Positions 7,867-8,140 of a DNA stretch of 12,853 nucleotides are shown piece by piece. Source of the DNA: a virus; the UHGV virus genome UHGV-1704341. The stretch is one strand, 5' to 3'. The notes beneath the pieces were generated by a model. It was not told the DNA's origin, did not search any database, and worked only from the letters and a program-made list of their open reading frames with translations. The position numbers were made by a program, and so were the translations under genes. Within the stretch, counting starts at the first letter, position 1; every line of letters starts with the position of its first letter.

Positions 7867-7891
7867 TGCATGTTTTTTGAACAGCTGATAT

Positions 7892-7914
7892 TGTGATCTT
7901 CATCACATTTGTGA
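7892..7914. promoter_or_regulatory. CRP-consensus-like palindrome TGTGA-N6-TCACA plus an extra TGTGA half-site
   Basis: tattGTGAtcttcaTCACAttt at 7889-7910 matches the cAMP-CRP core (TGTGA 7892-7896, 6-nt spacer, TCACA 7903-7907). Another TGTGA at 7910-7914. About 25 nt upstream of the RBS of the 67-aa ORF. Confidence 0.45.
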
Positions 7915-7936
7915 TACTGGTTGAAAGGAGATCACC

Positions 7937-8140
7937 ATGCAAAATAGTAAACACACGACCAAGAAGGTCGTGGCAATTGCAAATAATATTGAGATTGGCT
8001 CAGTATTAGTGTCTGCTACTCAGAAAAGTATTCTGCTGAATACTGGTTGGGAATTACCAATTAGAGAAGTAGACAAGCTGTCTCATTCCTATGAGGTTTA
8101 CATTAAACCTCGTCATAAAACCCTCCATCCTTCGCGATGA
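7937..8140 (+). CDS. Hypothetical 67-aa protein (moron position between Q terminator and holin)
   Basis: Strong RBS aaggag (7925-7930) 6 nt before ATG 7937. No recognisable family. Followed by a GC-rich hairpin. Confidence 0.45.
   Translation: MQNSKHTTKKVVAIANNIEIGSVLVSATQKSILLNTGWELPIREVDKLSHSYEVYIKPRHKTLHPSR

Follow-up and report, generated by a model that had tools for sequence, protein, structure and literature searches.

A CRP-type palindrome as a candidate operator on the predicted promoter of a portable moron cassette between Q and the holin gene of a lambdoid prophage

What is a close match to the binding site of the host regulator CRP doing in the late control region of a lambdoid prophage? 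The question is raised by a 22-bp palindrome in a 12,853-nucleotide stretch of the UHGV virus genome UHGV-1704341 (hereafter the window, one strand read 5' to 3'), where it lies between the late antiterminator gene Q and the holin gene, just upstream of a small open reading frame of 67 amino acids (ORF67). The answer that we favor, and hold to be reasonably probable, is that the palindrome is an operator for cyclic AMP-bound CRP (cAMP-CRP) that would repress, by occlusion, the sigma-70 promoter of a moron carrying ORF67; host carbon status would then probably switch the gene off. The parts of this unit are the following.

7866-7894, plus strand: predicted sigma-70 cassette promoter, with -35 TTGCAT at 7866-7871, a 17-nt spacer, and -10 TATTGT at 7889-7894
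7889-7910, no strand assigned: CRP-type 22-bp site, with core TGTGA-N6-TCACA at 7892-7907 and center at 7899.5, near -2.5 relative to the predicted start
7902-7915, plus strand: predicted transcription start (+1, A7902) and 5'-terminal hairpin AUCAC-auuu-GUGAU, in which half-site 2 pairs with a third TGTGA
7925-7930, plus strand: Shine-Dalgarno (SD) sequence AAGGAG, of the GGAG type found in all relatives
7937-8140, plus strand: ORF67, 67 amino acids, function unknown, predicted all beta-strand (phrog_25981; PHROG E 4e-51)
8159-8176, plus strand: cassette terminator stem-loop GGCCGCC-tacg-GGCGGCC, its T-tract missing through a 33-bp deletion at 8176/8177

The core of the palindrome, TGTGAtcttcaTCACA, occupies 7892-7907 and, both by direct reading and by scanning, matches TGTGA-N6-TCACA at 10/10 core positions, so that the exact match in both half-sites claimed in the initial annotation stands. 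The same annotation had judged such a match improbable by chance in 12.8 kb, and this judgment held up: TGTGATCTTCATCACA at 7892-7907 is the sole exact match within the window, the analytic expectation is 0.0115 per window, and dinucleotide shuffles of the window yielded a mean of 0.03 exact cores, with at least one match in 6/200 shuffles. Over its full length the 22-mer TATTGTGATCTTCATCACATTT (7889-7910) agrees with the CAP consensus AAATGTGATCTAGATCACATTT at 18/22 positions, a count made against a consensus string and distinct from a position weight matrix score; the number expected per window at this level is about 0.0004, and 0/400 Markov simulations reached 18. By our own count, the lac CRP site, in the sequence that we take it to have, reaches about 15/22 against the same consensus. 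Among 161 fetched loci, exact cores were confined to the equivalent position 5' of ORF67 homologs, apart from a single one in the roughly 120 unrelated 8-kb loci that served as background control.

Homologs of ORF67 are found in lambdoid prophages of E. coli and Citrobacter and in metagenomes, across about 10 lineages, and the region upstream of the gene was aligned for 13 sequences representing these ~10 lineages. The pattern TGTGA-N6-TCAC(A/G), with 9-10 of the 10 core positions, recurs at 37-45 nt 5' of the ATG in 9/10 lineages. Compared pairwise among lineages, half-site 1 has an identity of 0.88 and half-site 2 one of 0.86; the N6 spacer reaches 0.52, the promoter spacer 0.49, and the downstream untranslated region (UTR) 0.40. 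Residues R180, E181, and R185 of CRP contact G2 and G4 of TGTGA (PMC10187061), and the contacted G:C pairs are kept in 12/13 sequences for half-site 1 and in 13/13 for half-site 2, with the N6 spacing preserved in all. Together with the exact core, the 18/22 consensus match, and the 6-bp spacer, these conserved contacts support the assignment of the palindrome, by its sequence, to the CRP type. Moreover, the lineages keep a TG at positions 4-5 of the -10 hexamer that departs from the sigma-70 consensus, which implies some constraint other than the promoter. Half-sites 1 and 2 show 0 compensatory changes with respect to one another, half-site 1 being simply invariant, and this absence of covariation fits a sequence recognized by a protein, unlike an RNA stem.

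The position of the site relative to the predicted promoter provides a possible explanation for how it might act. The promoter pattern TTGnnn-N17-TAnnnT occurs at the same register in 13/13 related sequences, the spacer in the window carries a TG at 7886-7887, and the last three bases of the -10 (TAnTGT) are the first three of half-site 1 (TGTGA). A purine follows exactly 8 nt past the -10 hexamer in 13/13 aligned sequences; taking this purine, A7902, as the predicted +1 places the 22-bp site at about -13 to +9, with its center near -2.5 and half-site 2 over +1 to +6. The site would thus cover both the -10 and the +1 of the predicted sigma-70 promoter, in keeping with the earlier suggestion that it overlaps a local core promoter, the -10 hexamer here being fused to half-site 1. 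The distance of ~25 nt to the ribosome-binding site given at that stage was likewise accurate, with 25.5 nt from the center to the SD sequence and 37.5 nt to the ATG. A class I or class II activator geometry, by comparison, fails: a start 41.5 nt from the center would fall at 7941, inside the ORF and past the conserved SD sequence and ATG, and the same is true of all relatives (site-ATG distance 37-45 nt). Repression is the effect associated with CAP sites that lie beyond the -35 element in the downstream direction, pck and spf being examples (PMC10187061). Because the site lies downstream of the -35 element and class I/II geometry is excluded, we propose repression; the geometry, with the center at about -2.5, supports the initial view of an operator or roadblock as opposed to a classical activator site.

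A different -10/-35 pair can be drawn through the same sequence, with -35 TTGTGA at 7891-7896 and an extended -10, TGtGATACT, at 7910-7918. This promoter was rejected, as neither element is conserved in relatives and GATACT reads GATGCT in some E. coli copies. An octamer, GTTGCATG, at 7865-7872 overlaps the cassette -35 in the window and in the Citrobacter lineages only. It resembles what we take to be the single CytR octamer, GTTGCATT, and since it is absent from the other lineages the resemblance is probably incidental.

The palindrome is followed by a further TGTGA at 7910-7914. The initial annotation was right to report a third half-site sequence; its spacing from the palindrome is 2 nt, however, and not the 3 nt given there, and it is the 3' arm of a covarying hairpin at the predicted 5' end of the mRNA, not a CRP half-site. 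In the alignment, the helix between half-sites 2 and 3 is paired in 93.6% of cells, with AU-to-GC compensatory changes at two pairs, and its covariation score of 0.372 compares with 0.245 in shuffles, a value reached by 0/500 of them; controls in slid registers were 8-56% paired. RNAalifold returns the same helix as the only consensus structure of the 5' UTR. The hairpin begins exactly 8 nt past the -10 hexamer in 12/13 sequences, and its stem across sequences measures 5-8 bp with energies of -3.8 to -8.7 kcal/mol. The three repeats are thus best described as two overlapping predicted elements, a DNA palindrome formed by half-sites 1 and 2 and a 5'-terminal mRNA hairpin formed by half-sites 2 and 3, the latter probably stabilizing the cassette mRNA. 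The fold of the wider region 7868-7960 is no better than that of shuffles (z-score -0.95). An RNA switch pairing UGUGAUCU (7892-7899) with AGAUCAC (7929-7935) by the SD sequence was also considered, since it appears in the minimum free energy fold; it was discarded in view of the same z-score and of the absence of the 3' element AGAUCAC from relatives.

It is plausible, then, that in a lysogen with high cAMP the binding of cAMP-CRP at about -2.5 would exclude RNA polymerase from the cassette promoter, with the result that the cassette would be transcribed at low cAMP, when glucose is replete, and switched off when carbon is limiting. From the free promoter, a transcript would start at A7902 and carry a protective hairpin at its 5' end. 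What the sequences show is these features, how they are conserved, and that the hairpin covaries; CRP occupancy, the direction of regulation, the start site, the stabilization of the mRNA, and the role of ORF67 are inferred. A regulation of this kind suggests that ORF67 has its role in the lysogen, not in the virion. That the protein is more than passive cargo, namely a carbon-status-gated factor that acts on the late and lysis functions next to it or on superinfection (in lysis timing, anti-lysis, or exclusion) and is made by the lysogen only at low cAMP, is a speculation that we put forward as doubtful; if it were true, the CRP operator would couple prophage behavior to glucose availability.

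The late control region in which the cassette is embedded has the following features.

6992-7744, plus strand: late antiterminator Q, 250 amino acids, lambda-Q family (Pfam PF03589 Antiterm, E 2e-53; PHROG 127)
7777-7820, plus strand: PR'-like late promoter, with -35 TTGCAA at 7777-7782, a 17-nt spacer, and -10 TAGCCT at 7800-7805
7842-7863, plus strand: tR'-like intrinsic terminator, AAACCCGC-tcag-GCGGGTTT then TTTT, read from the sequence
8237-8572, plus strand: holin of the lambda-S family, first lysis gene (Pfam PF05106, E 5e-28; RefSeq annotation)

PHROG 127 comprises anti-termination proteins that are Q-like, and Q is annotated as an antitermination protein in 33 E. coli genomes. In the late promoter, the -10 is followed by TAACAT and then by a pause-type element, AAAGATGGG, at 7812-7820, so that the whole reads TTGCAA-17-TAGCCT-6-AAAGATGGG, including the sigma-dependent pause-type element. 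It shares its geometry with lambda PR' (NC_001416), which reads TTGACT-17-TAAATT-TGACTC-AACGATGGG, and the Citrobacter relatives carry the exact lambda pause element AACGATGGG. The late terminator that the initial annotation had placed upstream of the palindrome is indeed present, the hairpin and T-run at 7842-7863 being the equivalent of tR', and it is kept in relatives of the same Q family. Its reading of the locus as the slot between Q and the holin is likewise correct, the site and ORF67 both lying between Q/tR' and the holin gene. A scan of genomes for the sequence of the tR' hairpin returned generic terminators of unrelated bacteria only, with a CRP core downstream in none, and an Rfam search over 7400-8400 gave no match. 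During lytic growth, Q-modified polymerase starting at PR' would read through tR' and the cassette into the lysis genes regardless of CRP.

Several considerations weigh against the operator that we propose. Both the occupancy of the site by CRP and the sign of the regulation are read from sequence alone, and the cassette start site is itself a prediction. The promoter is weak, matching 7/12 positions plus the TG, and a stricter consensus promoter scan omits it. The lineages share ancestry, and the conservation counts therefore do not amount to independent events. Half-site 2 reads TCGCA in two lineages and TCACG in several, changes that would weaken CRP binding, and it is also constrained as an arm of the hairpin; being doubly constrained, it leaves half-site 1 as the only independent evidence for a protein site. 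Finally, in the lineage L157 half-site 1 is gone (TATTA for TGTGA), and promoter, hairpin, gene, and terminator are kept. The site is thus dispensable for the cassette, and the operator has the look of a regulatory add-on. The L157 sequence (1804-1884) is metagenomic, has a -10, TATTAT, that is closer to the consensus, and represents a natural operator-less variant.

Four other explanations have to be set beside repression by CRP. If no protein bound here at all, the palindrome could be a by-product of a -10/discriminator that happens to adjoin the 5' arm of an RNA hairpin, with pairing of half-sites 1 and 2 possible in RNA read through from PR'. Pairing in RNA places a demonstrable constraint on half-site 2, and all changes in it are A to G, which would preserve G-U pairs with half-site 1 (93.6% of cells count as paired); the 1:2 helix is nevertheless without compensatory change, and A-to-G is just the intermediate expected between A-U and G-C pairs in the 2:3 helix. 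L157 functions without half-site 1, as this explanation would have it, but the cassette's own transcript would exclude half-site 1 from any such pairing, and the fold of 7868-7960 lies near that of shuffles (z -0.95). The conserved non-sigma-70 TG inside the -10 and the GA after it would also go unexplained, and the combination of an exact CRP core with a fixed 6-bp spacing would need coincidence. We therefore consider the absence of a binding protein unlikely, if still deserving of some weight. An operator for a different dimeric DNA-binding protein, be it ORF67 itself in an autoregulatory role or some other regulator of phage or host, is less likely again: site and gene always travel together and there are three related half-sites in the window, as one might expect of such a pair, and yet the site remains constant across diverging proteins and phage backgrounds, the model of ORF67 shows no DNA-binding fold, and the immunity region holds no similar palindrome. 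On this last ground a CI operator in particular was rejected, and a Q-binding element was rejected because the same site occurs behind three unrelated Q families.

Could CRP instead activate transcription here, in class I/II fashion, either of ORF67 or of a leftward antisense transcript? Most CRP sites are activating (PMC10187061), and the symmetry of this one makes either direction formally possible. Rightward, however, the start expected at +41.5 from the center (about 7941) would come inside the ORF, beyond the conserved SD sequence and ATG; leftward, it would lie within the tR' hairpin, and conservation between lineages does not extend to the upstream sequence. With no -10-like hexamer at the required distance on either strand, activation is very improbable. 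As for a chance match without function, the exact cores that turned up in 6/200 shuffles of the window are the best that can be said for it. The 18/22 match, expected about 0.0004 times per window, the recurrence of the site at the same position in 9/10 diverged lineages, and the single exact core in ~120 unrelated loci leave it a negligible probability, and the comparative data effectively refute it. Repression by cAMP-CRP thus remains the reading with which we proceed.

The genetic setting of the ORF67 homologs varies. They are preceded by three unrelated Q families (PF03589, PF06323, and PF06530) and followed by differing lysis cassettes, with the lambda-S holin or holin_8 plus holin_3_7, and lysozyme, CHAP, GH19, or GH108 endolysins, and the homolog is always the first rightward gene past the Q region. 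Every aligned sequence contains the same parts: promoter, purine 8 nt on, GGAG-type SD sequence, ORF, and intrinsic terminator, the last having the form AGGCTGCC-n4-GGCGGCC-TTTTTTAT in all relatives. From the tR' terminator to the stem-loop, the guanine-plus-cytosine (GC) content is 0.36-0.42, as against 0.48-0.55 in the flanks. By definition a moron brings a promoter and a terminator of its own, deviates in GC content, and has spread between phages (PMC3594210). The unit shows its own predicted promoter, a terminator in relatives, deviant GC content, and unrelated phage backgrounds, and the best reading of it is accordingly that of a portable, horizontally mobile moron cassette inserted just past tR'. 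The window itself departs from this at the terminator, where the stem at 8159-8176 is kept and the T-tract is gone, whereas the relatives and 32 E. coli genomes have the stem followed by TTTTTTAT.

Other genes have entered the same interval in some relatives. In three lineages a methyltransferase gene stands between the ORF67 homolog and the holin gene. In the Citrobacter-type relatives L002, L010, and L152, the gene inserted between the ORF67 cassette and the holin gene encodes a 350-amino-acid N6/N4 DNA methyltransferase (PF01555; about 4416-5468 in L002), and this slot thus seems to have received a second cargo gene. Lineages with a PF06530-type Q carry a leftward gene between Q and the ORF67 cassette, encoding 159 amino acids in L149 and L150 (2285-2764) and a 263-amino-acid methyltransferase-like protein in L154 (2005-2796); with such a gene in place, the layout of late promoter and terminator there must differ from that of the window.

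The 67-amino-acid ORF with a strong ribosome-binding site described in the initial annotation is, on the evidence of its SD sequence (AAGGAG, 7925-7930), its PHROG match, and its homolog family, to be regarded as a real gene. Its ATG is at 7937 and its frame ends at 8140. The search against profile databases that had been recommended assigns it to phrog_25981 (E 4e-51), a family of unknown function, and searches of Pfam, NCBIfam, and PADLOC profiles gave no match. Of the blocks into which the assembly collection is indexed, 3,781 contain the exact protein, as do 33/5,426 complete E. coli genomes. A small orphan family of 61-70 amino acids and 36-78% identity, with the core motif G.V..P....L.TGW.lP...V.K.sH.YEV.l.PrH...HPS.W, is all that word-indexed and exhaustive HMMER searches brought up. 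Neither megablast nor tblastn matched anything in GenBank phages, a peptide-pattern scan of species-representative genomes gave no ORF67 relative, and a scan of IMG/VR returned identical copies only. An AlphaFold2 model of the protein has five strands and a predicted local distance difference test score (pLDDT) of 81; an earlier model built from 3 sequences (pLDDT 59) was too poor and was set aside. The fold had no match of note in the PDB or BFVD. An AbrB/MazE-like, autoregulating DNA binder was considered for ORF67 and is unsupported, the model being a five-strand beta protein with no notable fold match. A second 67-amino-acid ORF in the window (10007-10210) has a good SD sequence and encodes a hydrophobic product, probably a membrane peptide, whose sequence includes MKILWVISLLCSAIGFIEGILGVF; it bears no relation to ORF67, and RefSeq lists it as hypothetical.

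The copy of the cassette in the window carries a lesion of its own. Right after the terminator stem, 33 bp (TTTTTTATGCGCACTTCTGCAAATCAGCGTTAT), T-tract included, are absent, and these are present in 32/32 complete E. coli genomes covering the interval. Should the deletion be real, transcripts started at the cassette promoter could extend into the genes for holin and endolysin. Many complete E. coli genomes contain prophages that are 99.3-99.4% identical to the window; the alignment with the closest genomes is always in 4 pieces, with further insertions or deletions relative to them at window positions ~1143-1155, 1373, 2872-2880, 9111, 10388, 10705-10714, and 11908-11923. The ymfK-like repressor gene has 13 bp inserted near its start, the ymfT/cro-like region lacks about 57 bp, and another insertion measures 9 bp. 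The Rz-like lysis gene is truncated by the loss of 16 bp, stretches of about 55 bp and of about 25 bp are missing further on, and the large terminase gene is interrupted by 16 additional bp. Since there are several such small changes, some of them disrupting genes, this prophage copy looks degraded or imperfectly assembled.

The wider interest of the locus lies in the circuit that it would represent. If confirmed, it would be a clean case of a prophage cassette wired to the host catabolite-repression circuit, responding to carbon status as the stx1 promoter, which occupies the same genomic slot, responds to iron. The cassette would be a compact, portable regulatory unit, in which promoter, operator, mRNA hairpin, and terminator move together between phages with different late regulators, and the same predicted operator arrangement recurs in distantly related prophages. 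The analysis also flags an uncharacterized small protein family that is common in E. coli assemblies. The kinds of element involved, a CRP-repressed promoter and a host-regulated moron, are known ones, and our understanding of CRP or of morons would be unchanged by their combination here.

Comparison with known systems places each part of the arrangement. The likeness to the PR'-6S RNA-tR' unit of lambda lies in a lambda-Q family antiterminator and in the promoter and pause geometry upstream of the cassette, whereas the 6S RNA of lambda is 194 nt long and the terminated transcript here is predicted at about 50 nt. The ompA 5' UTR hairpin is reportedly a stabilizing 5'-terminal stem-loop (Emory, Bouvet and Belasco, 1992); the shared feature is a hairpin starting no more than 2 nt from the mRNA 5' end, with the difference that the 5' end here is predicted and the stem is short. 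Among CRP-repressed promoters of E. coli, spf/Spot 42, and pck at high CRP, likewise have a CRP site within or downstream of the core promoter (PMC10187061). In contrast to the CRP-repressed promoters of E. coli, the site described here is found on a prophage cassette and is much nearer to consensus than most repressing sites, with half-site 1 fused to the -10 and half-site 2 forming the 5' arm of the hairpin. The P2 promoter of cyaA is a further CRP-repressed promoter of that species. With morons of the HK97 gene 15 and lambda bor/lom type, the cassette shares the character of an independent unit with deviant GC content that has spread among unrelated phages (PMC3594210); the definition of a moron is silent on operators for host factors, and in the window the T-tract of the terminator is deleted. 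The closest analog is the stx1 gene with its Fur box in Stx1-converting lambdoid phages, where cargo likewise sits between Q/PR'/tR' and the lysis genes and can be reached by two routes of transcription, stx1 being transcribed from PR' upon induction and also from a promoter of its own, at which Fur, a global regulator of the host, acts as repressor through its operator (PMC8065619). There, iron acting through Fur controls a toxin; here, the predicted signal is carbon status, acting through cAMP-CRP, and the cargo is a 67-amino-acid protein of unknown function.

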